Source of the DNA: an uncultured delta proteobacterium
GTDB taxonomy: Bacteria; Myxococcota; Myxococcia; Myxococcales; Anaeromyxobacteraceae
NCBI GenBank assembly: GCA_963766715.1
Contig: CAVYBH010000015.1
Coordinates: 1-64,000 of the forward strand
Length of the DNA: 64,000 nucleotides
Direction of reading: 5' to 3'
Within the stretch, counting starts at the first letter, position 1. Every line of letters begins with the position of its first letter. Shown piece by piece: positions 42,912 to 52,402 of this stretch. The notes under the pieces are model-generated. The model was given only the letters and a program-made list of their open reading frames with translations, did no database searches and was not told where the DNA came from. The position numbers and the translations under genes were made by a program.

Positions 42912-43748
42912 ATGACGACGACGCATCGGTGGTTCGGCCTTGGCGCGGCGCTCCTGCTCGCAGGGTGTGGCGGGAGCAGCACCTCGCAGACGAACGCGGC
43001 GGCCAGCACCCCCTTCACCTACGGCCAGTCCCAGCCGGCCACCGCCGACCAGACGGGAGCGATGGGCGGGACGGTCGCGAGCATCGACGCCTTCCTGGCC
43101 TCGCCGGGAACGGGCTCGGGTCTCGGCGCCGCGGACGCGGGCAGCGTCACCGGAGCCATCCTCCAGGGAGGCGGGGTGGATTCCTTCTCGCCGTCCGCCG
43201 TGGGCGCGACCGGGGCGTCACCCTTCGACGTCCCTTCCTGCGCCGTCGTCTCGAGCGGCAAGGTCACCTTCACCGGCTGCAAGGTCACCGTCTCGCAGAC
43301 GAGCGGCAGCACGTCGACGAACGGCTCGGTGACGGTGAACGGCGACGTCTCGCTGTCCGCCGACCATCGGACGCTCACCTGGGATCTCACCTACGGGGTC
43401 GCGCTCACCATGAGCGGCACGAGCGCACTCTCGATGTCCGGCACCCAGCACTCGACGGGAACCATCGTGACCACCGCCACGTCGGCCGTGGGCGACATCG
43501 CCTCCGAGGTCTCCCTGACGGTCTCCGCCGGCGGCCAGACGGTGTCCGCGGCGGTCGACGAGAGCCTGACCTTCGACGTCACCCGCTCCGACACCTGTGC
43601 CACCGGCGTGACCGGCGGGACGCTCGAGGCGAAGCGCGTCTGGACTTCGCGGCCGGCCGGCGCGTCGTCCGCGGATCTCCCGGACGAGGCCGCCAAGATC
43701 ACGTGGAGCGGCTGCGGGGCGGGCACGATCCAGTTCGGGAATCGTTAG
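42912..43748 (+). CDS. Hypothetical beta-rich lipoprotein
   Basis: RBS GGAGGGG, lipobox LLAGC, Ser/Thr-rich alternating beta pattern, four further Cys. Confidence 0.75.
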   Translation: MTTTHRWFGLGAALLLAGCGGSSTSQTNAAASTPFTYGQSQPATADQTGAMGGTVASIDAFLASPGTGSGLGAADAGSVTGAILQGGGVDSFSPSAVGATGASPFDVPSCAVVSSGKVTFTGCKVTVSQTSGSTSTNGSVTVNGDVSLSADHRTLTWDLTYGVALTMSGTSALSMSGTQHSTGTIVTTATSAVGDIASEVSLTVSAGGQTVSAAVDESLTFDVTRSDTCATGVTGGTLEAKRVWTSRPAGASSADLPDEAAKITWSGCGAGTIQFGNR

Positions 43749-44018: not shown

Positions 44019-44366
44019 ATGAACAGGATGTTTCGGTATGGCGCCGCGCTCCTCCTCGTCGGTGCGATGTCGGCATGCGGCGGCTCCAGTTCTCCGTCTG
44101 GCCGCACCGTGACCATCTCCTGGGCCCCGAACAGGGACGCGGGCGTGAACAAGACGGGGGGCGGCTACCGGATCACCATCCCCGGCCAGCCCACGGTCAA
44201 CGTCCCCTACGTATCCGGATCGGCTGCTCCGACCTCGACGGACGTCACGCTCCCTTCGGGCACCTACACGGTCACGGTCGTGGCGTATGCGGCCCTCGAT
44301 GCCCAGGGAGGCGCCACGGGTAGCTCGAGCGCGCCTTCCACCCCCATCACGGTCACGGTGCCGTGA
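44019..44366 (+). CDS. Small lipoprotein with fibronectin type III-like domain
   Basis: Lipobox MSAC; TVTISW, GYRI, LPSGTYTVTVVAY, SAPSTPITVTVP. Confidence 0.7.
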   Translation: MNRMFRYGAALLLVGAMSACGGSSSPSGRTVTISWAPNRDAGVNKTGGGYRITIPGQPTVNVPYVSGSAAPTSTDVTLPSGTYTVTVVAYAALDAQGGATGSSSAPSTPITVTVP

Positions 44367-44383
44367 TGCACCCAGGAGGAACC

Positions 44384-46237
44384 ATGACAACCCGTTCCGT
44401 CGTCCTCGCTGGTCTCCTGCTCTCCCTCCTCGTCCCGGCTGGCCATGCGCTGGCTGCCGGCACCGGACTGCAATCCGTCACCGATGGTCTCGGAACGTAC
44501 GTTCCCGGCGAGGTCCTCGTGAAGTTCACGCCGGGCGTCACCGCCCGCGCCAGGGCAGCGTCGCTCGCGTTCCAGGGGCACGCGCTCATCGCCGAGCTCC
44601 CCGAGCCGGGCTGGGCACAGGTTCGGCTGGAAGCCGGCCAGACCGTGGCCGGCGCGCTGGCGGCCTACCGGAGCAATCCCGGCGTGGAGTACGCCCAGCC
44701 GAACTACGTCTACCGGCCCTCGGCGATACCCAACGATCCGATGTACGGGCAGCTGTGGGCCCTGAAGAACACGGCCCAGACCATCTCGAACGCTTACACC
44801 CAGCCTCCGGGCTCGCCCGTTCCCTACGCCACCAACAATCCCGGCACGTCGGGCAACGACATGAATCTCGAGAAGGCCTGGGACACCATCACCGACTGCG
44901 GCGGCGTGGTGGTGGCCGTCCTCGACACCGGCGTCAACTACAACCAGCAGGACCTCGCCGCCAACATGTGGACCACCGCGGCCTACCCCAAGCACGGGAA
45001 GAACTTCATCGACAACAACGACGACCCGATGGACGGCGAGGGCCATGGCACGCACGTGGCAGGCACCATCGGCGCGGTGGGCAACAACGGGCTGGGCGTC
45101 TCCGGCGTGTGCTGGAAGGCGTCCATCATGGCCGTGCGGGTGCTCGGCGTGGGTGGCGGCAGCACCGCGACCATCATCAGCGGGATCGACTTCGCCATCG
45201 CGCAGGGGGCAAAGGTCATCAACATGAGCCTGGGCGACAACAACCCGCTCGATCAGCTCTTCAGCAACGCCATCACGAGGGCCAGGACCGCCGACATCGC
45301 CGTGGTCGTGGCCGCCGGGAACGAGAAGGCCGACAACGACGACGCCACGACCCCCACGTGGCCTTGCAACTTCTCGAAGACCCTCGACAACGTCGTCTGC
45401 GTCGCCGCGCTCGACCAGAAGTACGCCCTCGCCGCCTTCTCGAACTGGGGCGCCACGACCGTCACCGTCGGGGCTCCCGGGACGAACATCCTGAGCACCT
45501 GGGCGGGGACGGCCTCGAGCATCCAGGACCCGCTGAACGCCGCGACCGCCGGATGGACGCTCAGTGGATGGTCCTACCTGGCGTGCATCACCACGGGATC
45601 ATGCCTCGTCGACCCGTCGAACTTCCCGGACGGCCTCTACGCCAAGAACGCCGACAACCGGGCGTACAAGACCTTCGCCGTCGGCGCGGTGGACGTCGCG
45701 GTCCTGAAGTTCTACACGGATTTCACCGTGGCCGCCGGCGACACGTTCAAGATCGGCTACCAGGCAGGGGCCTCCGGCATCGATCCCTTCGCGGGTGGCG
45801 GGACGATCCTGGCCGCCACGAACGCGACGACGGGAGAGGGCACCGGCGGAAAGTTCATCGAGCTGGGGTACAACGTGACGGCTTGCAAGAGCTCGAGCTG
45901 CAACATCGGATACCAGCTCCTGTCCGGGAGCACGGGCTCCGCCGCGAAGGGAGTGGCGGTCGCGGCCTTCGAGATCTCGATGCTGAACTGGAACGCCACG
46001 AGCTACAACACGATCAACGGAACGTCCATGGCGACCCCGGCGGTGGCAGGCGTGGTGACGCTGGTTCGCGCCTACAACCCGCTGTACACCTACGCCGACG
46101 CGGTGAAGTCGGTCACGGCATCGGGCCGCGCGGTGAGCAGCCTGGCCGGCAAGACCGTCACGGGAAGGGCCGTCGACGCCATGGCGGCGCTGGCGTTCAT
46201 CCAGGCGCCGACCGGCGTGTCGGCCACGGTGAAGTAG
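44384..46237 (+). CDS. S8 subtilisin-family serine protease
   Basis: Signal peptide and propeptide; catalytic VLDTG, GHGTHVAGTI and GTSMATP; oxyanion AAGN; ~170-aa insert before the Ser motif. Confidence 0.95.
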   Translation: MTTRSVVLAGLLLSLLVPAGHALAAGTGLQSVTDGLGTYVPGEVLVKFTPGVTARARAASLAFQGHALIAELPEPGWAQVRLEAGQTVAGALAAYRSNPGVEYAQPNYVYRPSAIPNDPMYGQLWALKNTAQTISNAYTQPPGSPVPYATNNPGTSGNDMNLEKAWDTITDCGGVVVAVLDTGVNYNQQDLAANMWTTAAYPKHGKNFIDNNDDPMDGEGHGTHVAGTIGAVGNNGLGVSGVCWKASIMAVRVLGVGGGSTATIISGIDFAIAQGAKVINMSLGDNNPLDQLFSNAITRARTADIAVVVAAGNEKADNDDATTPTWPCNFSKTLDNVVCVAALDQKYALAAFSNWGATTVTVGAPGTNILSTWAGTASSIQDPLNAATAGWTLSGWSYLACITTGSCLVDPSNFPDGLYAKNADNRAYKTFAVGAVDVAVLKFYTDFTVAAGDTFKIGYQAGASGIDPFAGGGTILAATNATTGEGTGGKFIELGYNVTACKSSSCNIGYQLLSGSTGSAAKGVAVAAFEISMLNWNATSYNTINGTSMATPAVAGVVTLVRAYNPLYTYADAVKSVTASGRAVSSLAGKTVTGRAVDAMAALAFIQAPTGVSATVK

Positions 46238-46245
46238 GAGGCGGC

Positions 46246-46587
46246 ATGCGGGCTCTCGTCCTCTGTCTGGCGGCGGTCCTGATCCCCGGTGGTGCCGGGT
46301 GCGCAGGATCGCCGCCGAGCCCCGCCGAGGGACCTGCGAGCCCTTCCCCCACCCGGTCGGCCGTGCCGGGCGAGTACCTCGTCACAATCGCGCCCGGCGC
46401 GGGCGCCGGGGTGGTCGAGCAGGTGTACGGGCGCTTCGGGATCAAGAAGACCCAGGACCTGGGGAACGGGGTCGTCCTCGTGGCCCTGAAGGAAGACCCG
46501 GGGCTTGCGCGGATGACGGAGCTGCAGGCGCAGGACCCGCGGCTCACGGCGGTCCAGCCGAACTTCGTCTACAGGGCCCTTCACTGA
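46246..46587 (+). CDS. Lipoprotein resembling a free-standing subtilase propeptide (I9-like)
   Basis: RBS AGGAGG; MRALVLCLAAVLIPGGAGC, Pro-rich linker, VPGEYLVTI...AVQPNFVYR. Confidence 0.75.
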   Translation: MRALVLCLAAVLIPGGAGCAGSPPSPAEGPASPSPTRSAVPGEYLVTIAPGAGAGVVEQVYGRFGIKKTQDLGNGVVLVALKEDPGLARMTELQAQDPRLTAVQPNFVYRALH

Positions 46588-48280
46588 GCGATCCGGGCCC
46601 GGAACTCCGCTGTCCGAGCCGGCGGCTGGCCGGGTCGCTCCTGGCGCTCCTCTCCGCCGCCTGCGCGACCCCGGCGACAATCTCGAGGAACGTCGTCCAG
46701 ACGGACACAGGCGCCGTCCGGGGCGTCGAGCGCAACGGCGCGCTCGAGTTCCGCGGCATCCCGTTCGCCGCTCCCCCGGTGGGCGACCTTCGCTGGGCCC
46801 TGCCCCAGCCGGCCGCGGCCTGGCCGGGCGTTCGCGACGCGACCACCTTCGGCAACGCCTGCCCGCAGACCCGGCGCTTCGAGCTGACCGAGCGCAGCAC
46901 GACCGAGGACTGCCTGTTCTTGAACGTCAGCGCCCCACCCGACCTGGCGGCCGGGGAGAAGCTCCCGGTGCTGGTCTGGATCTACGGCGGAGCCTTCGTC
47001 GGCGGCTCCGGGAGCCTCTACCGGCTCGACAAGCTCGCGACGCGGGGACGGATGGTCGTGGTCTCCATGAACTACCGGATGGGCGTCCTCGGCTTCATGG
47101 GGATCCAGGGGATCGACGGCGACTTCAACGGCGACGTGGGGCTCGAGGACCAGCGATACGCGCTTCGCTGGGTGCAGCGAAACATCGCGGCCTTCGGAGG
47201 GGATCCGGACAACGTCACGGTGGGCGGAGAGTCGGCCGGAGCCGGCTCCACCTGCATGCACCTCATCAGCCCGGACCGCGTGAAGGGGCTCTTCCACAAG
47301 GCCATCGTCCAGAGCGGCGGCTGCCTGCAGCCCATGCCCACCCTCGCGAAGGCAATCGACGACGGCGACCCGAAGAGCCCCCCCATGTGGAAGAAGGTGG
47401 CGACCGAGGTGGGCTGCGGCGACGCCTCCGACGTCGTCGGGTGCCTCCGCGCCGCATCGGTCGACCAGCTGCTCCAGGCGCAGGGCAGGCTCAGCGTCGG
47501 GATCATGGCCCTCGGCCCGGTGGTCGGGAACGGGACCGTGCCGGCCCAGGCGGCGGACGCGGCGAGGACGGGCGCCGTGATGCGCGTGCCCTTGCTCATG
47601 GGCGGCACCCGCGACGAGCTTCGCCTCTACGTGGCCTACTCGAAGCTCTTCTCCCCCTTCCTGTCCGACTACTCCGAGGCGGGGCTGCGGAAGGACTGGC
47701 TCCCCACCTACTACGGGCCGGATGCGCCCGACCCCACCCACCCCGGCCAGACCCGGTACGAGTCGATCCTGAAGGAGTACCGGGTCGCGGAGGGCATGGA
47801 CGGGGCACGCCTCGGCTCGATGCTGTCCGACCACCAGGAGGCGGTCGGCCTCGACAACTGCCTGTACCTCGAGACCTCCGACGCCTTCCTGGACTGGGTG
47901 CCCGCCATCTACCAGTGGGAGTTCGCCGACCCCGCCGCGCTCGTGCTGGGGGTGGGCATCGCCAAGGGAATGGACCCCGGGTTCGCGCTGGGGGCCGTCC
48001 ATTCCTCCGAGCTCAACTACCTCTTCCCCCACCTGTCGAACACGGCGGCCATCGACGCCCCCGACCTCCCGCCGGCCTCCGAGGCCATGGGCGACCAGCT
48101 CGTGGCCTACTGGGCGAGCTTCGCGAGCACCGGGCCCCGGCGCCGGCCGGCCAGCCTTCCTGGCCCCGCTACGTGAAGGGCGGGACGAAGGTCATGCGCT
48201 TCACTCCGGGGAACGTGGCGCCCCACGACGCGCACGCGGCGCACCGGTGTGCGTTCTGGAGCACCCTGGGCAGGAACTGA
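46584..48280 (+). CDS. Type B carboxylesterase, probable lipoprotein (start codon unclear; frameshift near 48135)
   Basis: [69 protein letters not shown]. Confidence 0.88.
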
Positions 48281-48295
48281 CCCCGGCCAGCGCCT

Positions 48296-49539
48296 TCAGC
48301 CCAGGTCCTTCTCCTCCACCCGGTCGGCCGAGATGGCGTCGGCCTCGTGGTCGCGAAGCCGCAGCGCGGCCCTCTCCTTGCGGTACTCCCGGTACCACTC
48401 GCTCGCCACGATGAGCGACATGACCTCGTTGGTGCCCGGTCCAGATGGAGGCCAGCCGCAGGTCGCGGACGATGCGCTCGATCGGGAAGACGTTGGTGTA
48501 GCCGATGCCGCCCATCACCTGCATGCGTTGTGGGCCACCTTCTGGCAGGACTCGGTGACGAACTTCTTGGTCTCCGAGACCAGGCGCCGGATGTTGGCGG
48601 GCGGCGCTCCGGCGACCACGGCGCGGCTGGTCGTGTAGACCATGGCCCGCGCCGCGTCGAGCAGCATGGCGGCCTCGGCGACCTGGAAGCTCACCCCCTG
48701 GAAGTGGTTGATGGTCTGGCCGAAGGCCTTGCGCTTGAGCGGTGTAGCGCGTGGCGATCTCGCAGCGCCGGGCGCGCCGCGCCGATGGTCATGGCCGCGG
48801 TGCCGAGCCGCTCCGGGATCATCATCGTGTTGAAGACCGCGGCCCCGCCGTGGACCGTGCCGAGCAGGTTCGCCTGTGGGCACCCGCACGTCCTTGAAGA
48901 CGACCCGGCCGCGCCGCCGCCGCGGCAGCCCATCAGCCCGTAGAGGTACTCGGTCTCCACGCCCGGGGCCGCGATCGACGATGAAGCAGCTGATCGCCTG
49001 CTGCGGCTTGGCCGACGGGGTCGGTGCGCGCGTAGACCAGGAAGTAGTCGGCCGCCTCGCCGCCGACGATGAAGCGCTTCTGGCCGTTGAGCAGGAAGTG
49101 GTCGCCGCGCCGCTCGGCGGGTGGTGGTGCCGAAGAAGTCCGAGCCGCCGCGCGGCTCGGTCAGGCACTCGGCCGCGAAGATCTCGCCCCCCAGGAGCGG
49201 CTTCACGTACTGCTCGTGCTGCGCGTCGGTGCCGTGAAGACGATGGCGTCGCAGACCAGCTCCGCGCCCACGCCGAACACGCAGGCGAAGATGTAGCCGA
49301 GCGTGCCGACCTCCTCGATGACCATGGAGGTGCCACCCAGTCCATCCCGCGGCCGCCCCACGCTCGGGTAGCGGACCCCGAGCAGGCCGCGCCTGCCGGC
49401 CTCGCGCAGAAACTCCTTGGGGAAGCGGATCTTGCTCCTCGTCCATGTCCAGGATCATCTGGCGCGGCACCCAGCGCACCAGGTCGCGCACCTCCTCGCG
49501 CAGGGCCTTCTGCTCCCGGGTCAGCAGGAAGTCGAACAT
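48296..49539 (-). CDS. Acyl-CoA dehydrogenase (many frameshifts)
   Basis: [62 protein letters not shown]. Confidence 0.85.
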
Positions 49540-49546
49540 CACGTCC

Positions 49547-50015: not shown

Positions 50016-51158
50016 TCACCGTGCCGCGACGGCGAGCGGCGGAGCCTTCACCGGTCCGTTCAGCTTTCGCCGGACATGCTCGCCCAGGAGGAAGCGGAGG
50101 CGCTCGCAATCGACCTCGAGCGTTCGATCGACCTCCGGGTCGCCCAGTAGACCGCGCGTGCGGATCGTGTCGAAGACGGGCTCCTGCGAGAAGATGTAGG
50201 GCTCGTACACCTCGATGCCGTGGCGAAGGGCCTGCTCTTCATCGGAGAGGACCTCGGGCAGCGCTCCGGTGAGGCGCAGGCAACGGATCCCGAGCAGCTC
50301 GACCATCGCGGAGTAGAGCTCCCGGACGCTCACGGTGCGCGGGTTCACGAGGTGCAGCACCGAGCCCGGCGGCGGCCCCGCACGGACCGCGGCGAGCAGG
50401 AGCCGGATGACGTCGTCCACGCAGATGAGGTTCTTCTCCACCTCGTCGTGGCCGAGGACCGCGAAGGCCCCCGCGGGAAGCGCCGCCACGGCGGCTTCCC
50501 CGTACTTGCCCTCCAGCATCGTCCGGAAGCGCCAGAGCACCTTCAGGGCTCCGTAGATCATCTTGTCCGACTCGGCCGCGCCGTTTCGCGAGTCACCCAC
50601 GATGATCGACGGACGCAGGATGACCCAGTCGAGCCCCGATGCCCCCACGAGCCGCTCGGCCTCGTACTTGGACTCCTCGTACGGGTTGCAGAAACGGGGC
50701 GCTGGCGCGAGCAGCTCCTCCCGTACCTTCTCGCCGGGGCGGACCCCCGCCACGTAGGCCGTGGAGACGTGGAAGAGCTTGCCCGGCCGTTCGAGGCTGC
50801 GGAGGAACGCGATCAGGTTCCTCGTGCCCTCGACGTTGGCCTGGAAGGTCTCGGCGCGCCGGACCTCCTTGAAGTCGGTCCTCGCGGCCAGGTGGAAGCA
50901 GGCGTCGAGCGCTTCCGGGACGCCGTGCACGCCCTCGCGCGGCTCCAGGCCGAGCCCCGCGAGCGTCACGTCTCCCTCGACCACGTGGAAGCGCGGGTGA
51001 CCCACCAGGTCCCGGAGCTCCGGCCGCTGGGTCGGGAGCCCACCGTCCTTTCCTCGCGCCAGTGCCCAGACGTGAAGCTCGGGGTCGTCGCGGAGGAGCG
51101 CGCGCGTGAACACGCGGCCGACGAAGCCGGTCGCGCCCGTGACCAGTGCCTTTCGCAT
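50016..51158 (-). CDS. Extended SDR, male-sterility / fatty acyl-thioester reductase type
   Basis: LVTGATGFVG, HLAA, NVEGT, HVSTAYVAG, YEESK, RPSIIVGDS. Confidence 0.88.
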   Translation of the reverse strand: MRKALVTGATGFVGRVFTRALLRDDPELHVWALARGKDGGLPTQRPELRDLVGHPRFHVVEGDVTLAGLGLEPREGVHGVPEALDACFHLAARTDFKEVRRAETFQANVEGTRNLIAFLRSLERPGKLFHVSTAYVAGVRPGEKVREELLAPAPRFCNPYEESKYEAERLVGASGLDWVILRPSIIVGDSRNGAAESDKMIYGALKVLWRFRTMLEGKYGEAAVAALPAGAFAVLGHDEVEKNLICVDDVIRLLLAAVRAGPPPGSVLHLVNPRTVSVRELYSAMVELLGIRCLRLTGALPEVLSDEEQALRHGIEVYEPYIFSQEPVFDTIRTRGLLGDPEVDRTLEVDCERLRFLLGEHVRRKLNGPVKAPPLAVAAR

Positions 51159-51274
51159 CTTCTTGCCCCCCTTCCCTGGTCGATCTCGCCACTTGTTCGA
51201 TTGGCGGTAAACGGCCGGGAATCCGGCAAAAGGGGTCCCTCGTAGGTGTCGCCCCGGGCATGGCGCAGCCAGCG

Positions 51275-52402
51275 TCAGGCCAGCTGCCCGATGGTCTTGC
51301 GGAACCGGGCCAGGGAGACGAGGAAGAACACGGCGCCGATCCCCACGAGCGCGACGAACGGCGGCCAGACCACGTCGAGGCCGGCGCCCCGGTAGAGGAT
51401 GGCCTGGCGCAGCCGACGAAATGGGTGGTCGGCGCGGCCAGCATGAGTCCTGGACCAGCTCGGGCATGCTCTCGCGCGGCGTGCATGCCGCCCGAGAGCA
51501 TTTGCAGCGGCAGCAGGACCAGCATCATCAGCAGGCCGAACTGCGGCATCGAGCGCGCCAGGGTCGCCATGAAGATGCCCATCGACGTGGTGGCGAACAG
51601 GTGCAGCGCGCGCCGACCAGGAAGAGCGCCACCGAGCCCTCGATCGGCACGCCGCAATGCGCCCCTGGACGACGAAGACCAGCGAGACCGACGCGGCGAG
51701 CAGCACCACCAGCCCCATCGACCAGACTTGGCGAGCATGATCTCGGCGGGCGTGACCGGCATCACCAGCAGGTGCTCGATGGTGCCGTGCTCGCGTTCGC
51801 GGATCAGCGCCGCGCCGGTGAGGATGATCGACAGCATGGTCACGTTGTTGATGATCTCCATCAGGGAGCTGAACCACGATTGCTCGCAGCGTTGGGTTGA
51901 AGCGCGACGCGCAGCGCCAGATCCACCGGCGGCACTGCGACGCTGCGGTACCGCTGGACGAACTCGTTGACCTCGCCGATCGACGATCTGCTGGATGTAG
52001 CGCTGCCGGTGAAGGCCTGGCTCATGCGGGTGGCGTCGACGTTGAGCTGGATCGCCGGCGTGCGCCCGGCCAGCACGTCGCGCTGGAAGTTCGGCGGAAT
52101 GTCGAGCGCAAAGGTGTAGTCACCGCGTCCATGCCCGGCATCGACCTCGGCCAGGGCGATCCGTGCCGGCAGCTTGAAATGCGGCGGATAGAAGGCGGAC
52201 ACGATGCGCGCCGAGAGCGGCGAGCCGTCCTCGTCGACAATGGCGATCGGCGCATTGTGCAGGGTGTCGGGCATCGCCGTGGCAGCGACGTAGATCTGAG
52301 ACGGTGAAGGTGTAGACGATCAGCACCAGCATCATCGGGTCGCGCACCAGGCTCCACAGTTCCTTGACGCCCAGGCGGTAGACGTTCGCCAGGTGACGGC
52401 AT
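51275..52402 (-). CDS. yhhJ: ABC-2 transporter permease YhhJ-like (frameshifted)
   Basis: LGVKELWSL.RDP, IQLNVDATRMSQA, IREREHGTIEHLLVMP, ARSMPQFG, RFRKTI across frames. Confidence 0.8.

Follow-up and report, generated by a model that had tools for sequence, protein, structure and literature searches.

A conserved subtilase-lipoprotein gene module in which the protease tail is proposed to supply the missing first strand of an FN3 anchor

Short modules that recur on many unrelated secreted proteins and bring them to a surface anchor are known from cohesin-dockerin pairs and from the LPXTG, PEP-CTERM and MYXO-CTERM systems. To our knowledge, the known C-terminal sorting signals all depend on a membrane segment, on a secretion machine or on a transpeptidase. 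Type V fimbriae use lipoprotein anchors (FimB/Mfa2) and a C-terminal donor strand, and complementation between engineered fragments of an FN3 domain has reportedly been obtained in one study. In chaperone-usher pili, according to PMC4789730, an incomplete six-stranded immunoglobulin fold is completed by a donor strand; the same paper describes the Type V fimbriae of Bacteroidota (FimA/Mfa1), in which strands are exchanged among exported proteins and two-domain pilins are cleaved by gingipains into a filament. The potempins of Tannerella forsythia, as described in PMC9890683, are outer-membrane lipoproteins of 98-132 residues whose genes lie just upstream of the peptidase that each inhibits; they are OB-fold or up-and-down β-barrel inhibitors of the active site that form stable membrane complexes with their KLIKK peptidases. 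Among FN3 domains, PMC13233970 describes the strand-deficient anastellin, and PDB 4m6a contains N-terminal strand swapping in a consensus FN3 domain.

The locus analyzed here lies within a 64,000-nucleotide stretch of DNA (the window) from an uncultured delta proteobacterium. Three close-set genes on the plus strand form the module: a 115-aa lipoprotein (44019-44366), hereafter the anchor, a secreted 617-aa S8 subtilase (44384-46237), and a third gene of 113 codons (46246-46587). The module is real and conserved, and from its properties we infer that the C-terminal tail of the protease binds the anchor. A sigma-70 promoter and a plus-strand terminator were looked for and neither was found. Just 5' of it, a plus-strand gene at 42912-43748 encodes a probable lipoprotein of 278 aa that is rich in Ser and Thr and matched nothing in Pfam; directly 3', at 46572-48176 (+), is a carboxylesterase-family gene whose product lacks the tail and which was not seen in two other loci (L007 and L008). 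On the minus strand at 48201-49542 and 50593-52274, text resembling acyl-CoA dehydrogenases and ABC permeases runs, as read by eye, across several frames, indicating frameshifts or assembly errors.

As in chaperone-usher pili, an incomplete six-stranded β-sandwich is predicted to receive one strand from another polypeptide. Unlike in pili, the fold is an FN3 domain without its first strand, the proposed donor is the C-terminal tail of an enzyme, and groove and donor strand are encoded by different genes in all loci read; as no protein here has both, no polymer would form. No chaperone or usher genes were seen by eye in the flanks read. The likeness to Type V fimbriae would lie in a strand exchange between exported partners that has a lipoprotein as its foundation, but here a single FN3-type domain of 88 residues would hold one enzyme, and cleavage is not implied. 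With the KLIKK-peptidase/potempin pairs (PMC9890683) the locus shares a small lipoprotein gene directly 5' of a secreted peptidase and, by our reading, a stable membrane complex; it differs from them in having one half of an FN3 domain, a proposed contact through a tail, and cargo that is not always a protease. Like cohesin-dockerin and the C-terminal sorting signals, the proposed tag is a short module common to unrelated secreted proteins that would anchor them, yet no transmembrane segment, transpeptidase or folded dockerin is involved, and a tag of 10-12 residues would complete the fold of its own anchor. Anastellin and 4m6a demonstrate that FN3 domains can lose or swap N-terminal strands; the former is an animal fragment and the latter an engineered scaffold, whereas we propose a gene-encoded, two-part anchoring system. 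The module thus lacks a defining property of each of the pilus, potempin and sorting-signal systems compared. A literature search that covered subscription journals thinly returned, in the text available, no description of a strand-A tag and anchor. The binding mode itself is known from pili; new would be donor-strand complementation used as a cargo tag or sorting system.

The anchor begins with a hydrophobic signal peptide ending in Cys20 (44019-44078; Cys codon 44076-44078), from which we predict lipidation, and only seven Gly, Ser and Pro residues (21-27) separate this cysteine from the first strand. Cys20 is invariant in alignments of 84 and 125 rows, and a lipobox-like cysteine was present in 210 of the 236 lipoprotein homologues long enough for the test. 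The remainder (Gly28-Pro115, 44100-44363) was modeled by AF2 from 84 homologues as six strands (residues 28-34, 49-53, 60-63, 73-79, 81-91 and 110-114), with pLDDT ~90 over most of residues 31-115. When this model was compared by VIA-align with 48,161 chains, the top matches were FN3 domains with Z scores of 7.6-8.5, middling on the program's own scale, and, for most, rmsd of 1.3-1.8 Å over ~70 residues; nearly all of the 50 matches listed were FN3-type. These domains align from their second strand onward (e.g., 3teu 16-91 and 6xax 20-96). Foldseek returned nothing for the model at E≤0.001, the best rows below the cut-off again being FN3. The B, C, C', E, F and G strands and the Trp/Tyr core of an FN3 domain are all present, Trp35 and Tyr50 being invariant, and the BC and FG loops are long and conserved. 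A strand A within the same chain was sought in the model and in the fold alignment and was absent, which bears out the view in the first-pass annotation that the lipoprotein is an FN3 domain lacking this strand.

Searches of Pfam, NCBIfam and PDB sequences gave no family for the window lipoprotein; it did not match NCBIfam NF058595 (invert_tail, cut-off 37 bits), to which two distant anchors scored 21-22 bits over signal peptide and linker. Distant anchors match Pfam fn3 above cut-off starting at model position 8-15, and an Atlas search ranked unnamed clusters first and fn3 clusters next. The lipoprotein has 147 close relatives and, at 50% identity, 397 clusters of relatives. Of 268 homologues examined, fusions included, 256 could be parsed; in 255 of these nothing resembling strand A lies where it would be expected, and the segment in the sole scoring row resembles the last strand of the preceding domain. 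Some relatives carry additional N-terminal domains, among them intact FN3 domains that include a strand A, and still their last domain starts at strand B. These 255 homologues rule out that the linker or a fused domain provides strand A in cis.

The protease matches Pfam Peptidase_S8 (E 1e-48) and has a signal peptide, a fervidolysin-type prodomain (residues ~36-112), a catalytic triad (Asp181, His221 and Ser548) and a β-rich insert (~376-535). His221, Ser548 and the oxyanion residue Asn313 are invariant across homologous proteases and Asp181 is nearly so, in agreement with the fold matches. With the triad, oxyanion Asn and prodomain all present, the protein is an S8 subtilase and is predicted to be proteolytic. 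Shorter forms of ~450 aa, seen in L015, L016, L017, L066, L080, L082 and P0302, have the same tail and apparently no β-rich insert. The last helix of the protease model ends at residue 604, and the following 12-residue tail is without secondary structure (pLDDT 54 in the last block). This tail (Ile606-Lys617, 46199-46237 including the stop), in which Gln607-Lys617 occupies 46202-46234 ahead of a TAG at 46235-46237, has the alternating pattern P-T-G-[LV]-x-A-x-V across 45 homologous proteases. Pro609 is invariant, and the stop codon follows eight residues after it in 44 of the 45 and seven residues after it in the remaining one. C-terminal membrane segments with a basic tail are absent, the tails ending within eight residues of the proline, and sorting-signal models matched neither the protease nor two cargo proteins.

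Resemblance of the tail to an FN3 strand A was scored with a matrix whose only training data were 13 first strands from intact FN3 domains; the training rows include a few that are spurious. By this matrix the C-terminus of the window protease ranked first among 2,598 ORF ends in its genome, and scores of at least 8 were obtained for 34 of the 45 homologous tails against 9 of the 2,598 background ends. The window's genome contains one such anchor and one clear tail. Among 16 intact FN3 domains listed from the same data set, the distance from the last proline of strand A to the tryptophan of strand B is 16 residues in 13 and 17 residues in two, the other row being spurious. The protease tail contributes eight residues after its proline, and Gly28-Trp35 of the lipoprotein contributes the other eight; the sum of 16 places the cut at the A-B turn with neither gap nor overlap.

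Complex prediction with lipoprotein residues 21-115 and protease residues 584-617 gave an ipSAE of 0.54, compared with 0.01 for the best of three controls; at least 93% of contacts were reproduced between runs, and the partner pLDDT was at least 57. The ipSAE mark is reached by 116 of 157 solved pairs and 2 of 215 mismatched pairs, and at values up to 0.60 by 18 of the solved pairs together with both mismatches, which makes this weak support for binding; in addition, the halves of a split domain can pass complex prediction through their likeness to solved FN3 structures. The interface that had been called for at first pass was therefore predicted above its controls, though weakly, and its contacts were not given. 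The original reading of the tail as the missing strand A, acting in trans, draws its support from the length fit, the conservation, the gene linkage and the variety of cargo, and we regard strand complementation between tail and anchor as very probable.

Linkage of the two genes was examined in metagenome loci and in genomes. From 218 metagenome loci the best 80 were taken, which are related to one another and not independent; an S8 gene lies 3' of the lipoprotein gene in 73 of them, and the other seven end within 192 bases; all 37 complete S8 proteins in these loci end in the tail, in 23 distinct versions. Among 103 genomes of the order that holds L008 (Sulfuricaulis sp.), which is also the order of G401, 16 have a strong match to the anchor, and the same 16 of 16 carry a tailed S8 protease on the contig of the anchor, the correspondence holding in both directions. 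The additional matches in these 103 genomes were two tail-less S8 proteins and one unrelated repeat protein; no anchor was found in the DNA examined around the two tail-less relatives, both of which start at contig edges with their upstream DNA outside view. In 92 genomes of the window's own family, the anchor was found in eight and the tailed protease in seven, the contig of the eighth ending 538 bases past its anchor. These genomes are kin, so that the counts are not independent trials. The adjacency first noted in the window is thus repeated elsewhere. No single-ORF fusion of lipoprotein and S8 protease was found in the metagenome loci or among the best 150 of the 397 representatives (with the 3,906-aa P0199 left out). 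Probable decayed copies were also noted: a lone 105-aa fragment of a tailed S8 in G075, a member of the window's family (L177:1312-1626), and anchor fragments in G516 and G515 (L186:5426-5608 and L190:5311-5547).

The third gene was overlooked when the module was first described as a pair. It has no match of its own in Pfam or NCBIfam, but aligns with the prodomain of the protease by hhalign (97.1%, E 6e-11). Of 32 loci long enough to include it, 26 have it and six lack it, 29 of 30 copies have a lipobox-like cysteine, and its ribosome-binding-like AGGAGG overlaps the protease stop codon. The product is thus a probable lipoprotein and a standalone copy of the subtilase prodomain. Subtilase prodomains act as chaperones and inhibitors of their own enzyme. 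Judged by sequence, the third protein is probably an inhibitor or chaperone of the tethered protease, and as a membrane-bound spare copy it would most likely restrain it.

Tail and anchor are not confined to proteases, and in this respect the initial proposal, sound in its pairing, understated their scope. Lipoproteins with a strand-A-less FN3 domain appeared as weak matches in the genome search, and several adjoin proteins that are not proteases and whose C-termini carry a shortened version of the tail. In G525, 19 co-oriented tail-pattern matches lie behind one anchor (G525:C238:1754-23844; L178, L197), and in G527, 18 tails are distributed over six contigs (C51, C81, C225, C241, C300 and C331) with a single anchor gene; the tails of both genomes display synonymous codon variation. 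The array ORFs that were read by eye begin with signal-peptide-like segments. By Pfam, several array cargo proteins are polysaccharide-lyase-like or β-helix proteins, and 6 of 15 cargo proteins scanned have no family. Further tail-anchor pairs occur in G464, G466, G467, G471, G475, G478, G489, G512 and G514, and in G928 anchor-cargo pairs alternate. Single matches to the tail DNA pattern are noisy, its stop term admitting TGG and several matches looking like the shadow of another gene; for this reason the analysis relied solely on arrays and on cases that had been translated. A search that started from the tail pattern found adjacent anchors in G071 and G038. The pattern matched 12 of 401 genomes of the window's phylum; of seven examined, three have an anchor, either adjacent or on other contigs (G081), and in four (G126, G115, G147 and G306) no anchor was found in the DNA examined. 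In a tree of 65 rows, the backbone of which is unresolved, the tail-linked anchors are spread over several distinct groups with support.

More distant anchors set a boundary to the claim. Fifty distinct distant anchors were found anchor-first (57 rows minus two duplicates minus five reached through tails), and 14 of these have a co-oriented neighbour with a tail score of at least 6, against 16 of 2,598 background ORF ends. Another five, judged by eye, show tails that are weak or degenerate, and the rest, some of them on short contigs, show none. Solitary strand-A-less anchors cluster in several supported groups of the tree, and in five genomes that contain them the tail-pattern counts (18, 34, 30, 25 and 19) are not in excess of a reversed control (24, 27, 25, 22 and 20). 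Together, the clustering and the lack of a tail excess mean that the six-stranded domain may fold or work without a linked tail; solitary anchors may fold alone, pair with themselves or bind unlinked tails that escape the patterns used. The S8 module and the linked subtypes make a strong case for tag and anchor, one that does not extend to every strand-A-less FN3 domain. Seven solitary strand-A-less FN3 lipoproteins (L259, L261, L263, L266, L194, L319 and L321), with no tailed neighbour, directly follow a gene that looks by eye like a CRP/FNR-type regulator. At L326:4498-6510, a strand-A-less FN3 domain ends a 671-residue frame in a locus with a gene that we take, from its motif, to be PEP-CTERM-like.

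The mechanism that we favor, and consider probable, is a stable tether formed by donor-strand complementation. The lipoprotein would be exported, lipidated at Cys20 and carry strands B-G of the FN3 domain, one edge being left open. The protease would be exported separately, and its last 12 residues would insert as strand A, completing a seven-stranded fold in trans that holds the enzyme non-covalently at the membrane. With the cut at the A-B turn, FN3 topology would place the lipid linker and the enzyme at opposite poles, the arrangement of an ordinary S8-FN3 fusion; this placement rests on the standard topology of the domain. The third gene would add a spare prodomain, bound to the membrane, to restrain or chaperone the protease held there. 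The tag would be portable, being carried by lyase-like, β-helix and other secreted proteins in other lineages. Lipidation, binding, register, stability and the role of the third gene are all predictions of this scheme.

Complementation might instead be transient, with the lipoprotein serving as a recycling adaptor or chaperone that recognizes in the tail a signal for export or folding and later releases its cargo. The single anchor genes that accompany 19 (G525) or 18 (G527) tailed genes would suit a shuttle as well as a permanent tether, and conservation of the tail to its last residue on unrelated cargo is reminiscent of a sorting signal. Most loci are one-to-one, however, the alternating anchor-cargo pairs included, and no conserved secretion genes were seen by eye beside the module in the loci read. 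Completed FN3 folds are also usually stable, and we regard release of the cargo as unlikely, if the most serious competitor of a stable tether.

Less likely by a wide measure is a self-sufficient lipoprotein that folds alone, homodimerizes or binds something else, the tail being the vestige of an old S8-FN3 fission or having another partner. The 36 of 50 distant anchors without a clearly tailed neighbour are in keeping with self-sufficiency, as is the confident isolated six-strand model, but AF2 confidence is no measure of stability. A vestigial tail would drift, yet length and pattern are kept in 45 of 45 proteases and the tail recurs on unrelated cargo beside anchors from several separate tree groups; moreover, the gene order, anchor and then protease, is the reverse of that left by a simple fission. 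A potempin-like inhibitor of the active site, with the tail uninvolved, would account for the gene layout and the size of the lipoprotein, but potempins are β-barrels (PMC9890683) and the anchor is an FN3 sandwich; relatives of the anchor accompany non-protease cargo, and the third gene is the better inhibitor candidate, making this reading highly improbable. That a sequencing or assembly error truncated an S8-FN3 fusion at 46235 is virtually inconceivable and, as a sequencing error, refuted: the assembly is 84.6% complete and other parts of the window look frameshifted, but the stop has the same position in all 45 homologues and in all 37 complete copies from the loci, none of the 45 (lengths of 339-1080 aa searched) has a full FN3 domain, and the next gene is a separate conserved ORF, so the stop, on whose validity the earlier proposal depended, is genuine.

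Extended beyond proteases, the stable tether would become a general, enzyme-free sorting system in which exported proteins from several phyla, dozens of them and unrelated to one another, carry a strand-A tag of 10-12 residues that dedicated strand-A-less FN3 lipoproteins capture, so that one cell displays swappable enzymes (19 in one array); we judge this broader reading somewhat more likely than not. If true, anchoring would be achieved through fold completion alone, and a function would be available for many lipoproteins now called hypothetical or fn3-containing: the relatives form 397 clusters at 50% identity, and a search at E≤1e-10 adds 995 distant proteins, the absence of strand A having been checked for part of them. 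The tag would provide a searchable signature for envelope-tethered enzymes, and the 9-kDa domain with its peptide would make a compact natural binding pair that might be useful to protein engineers. As a natural tag-and-catcher pair it may, in addition, come in cognate subtypes that are orthogonal. In one subtype (L184, L264, L267 and L276), the cargo has a Cys-x2-Cys just before the tail and the anchors have an extra cysteine in the BC loop; the tails of G518, which belong to this subtype, are degenerate.
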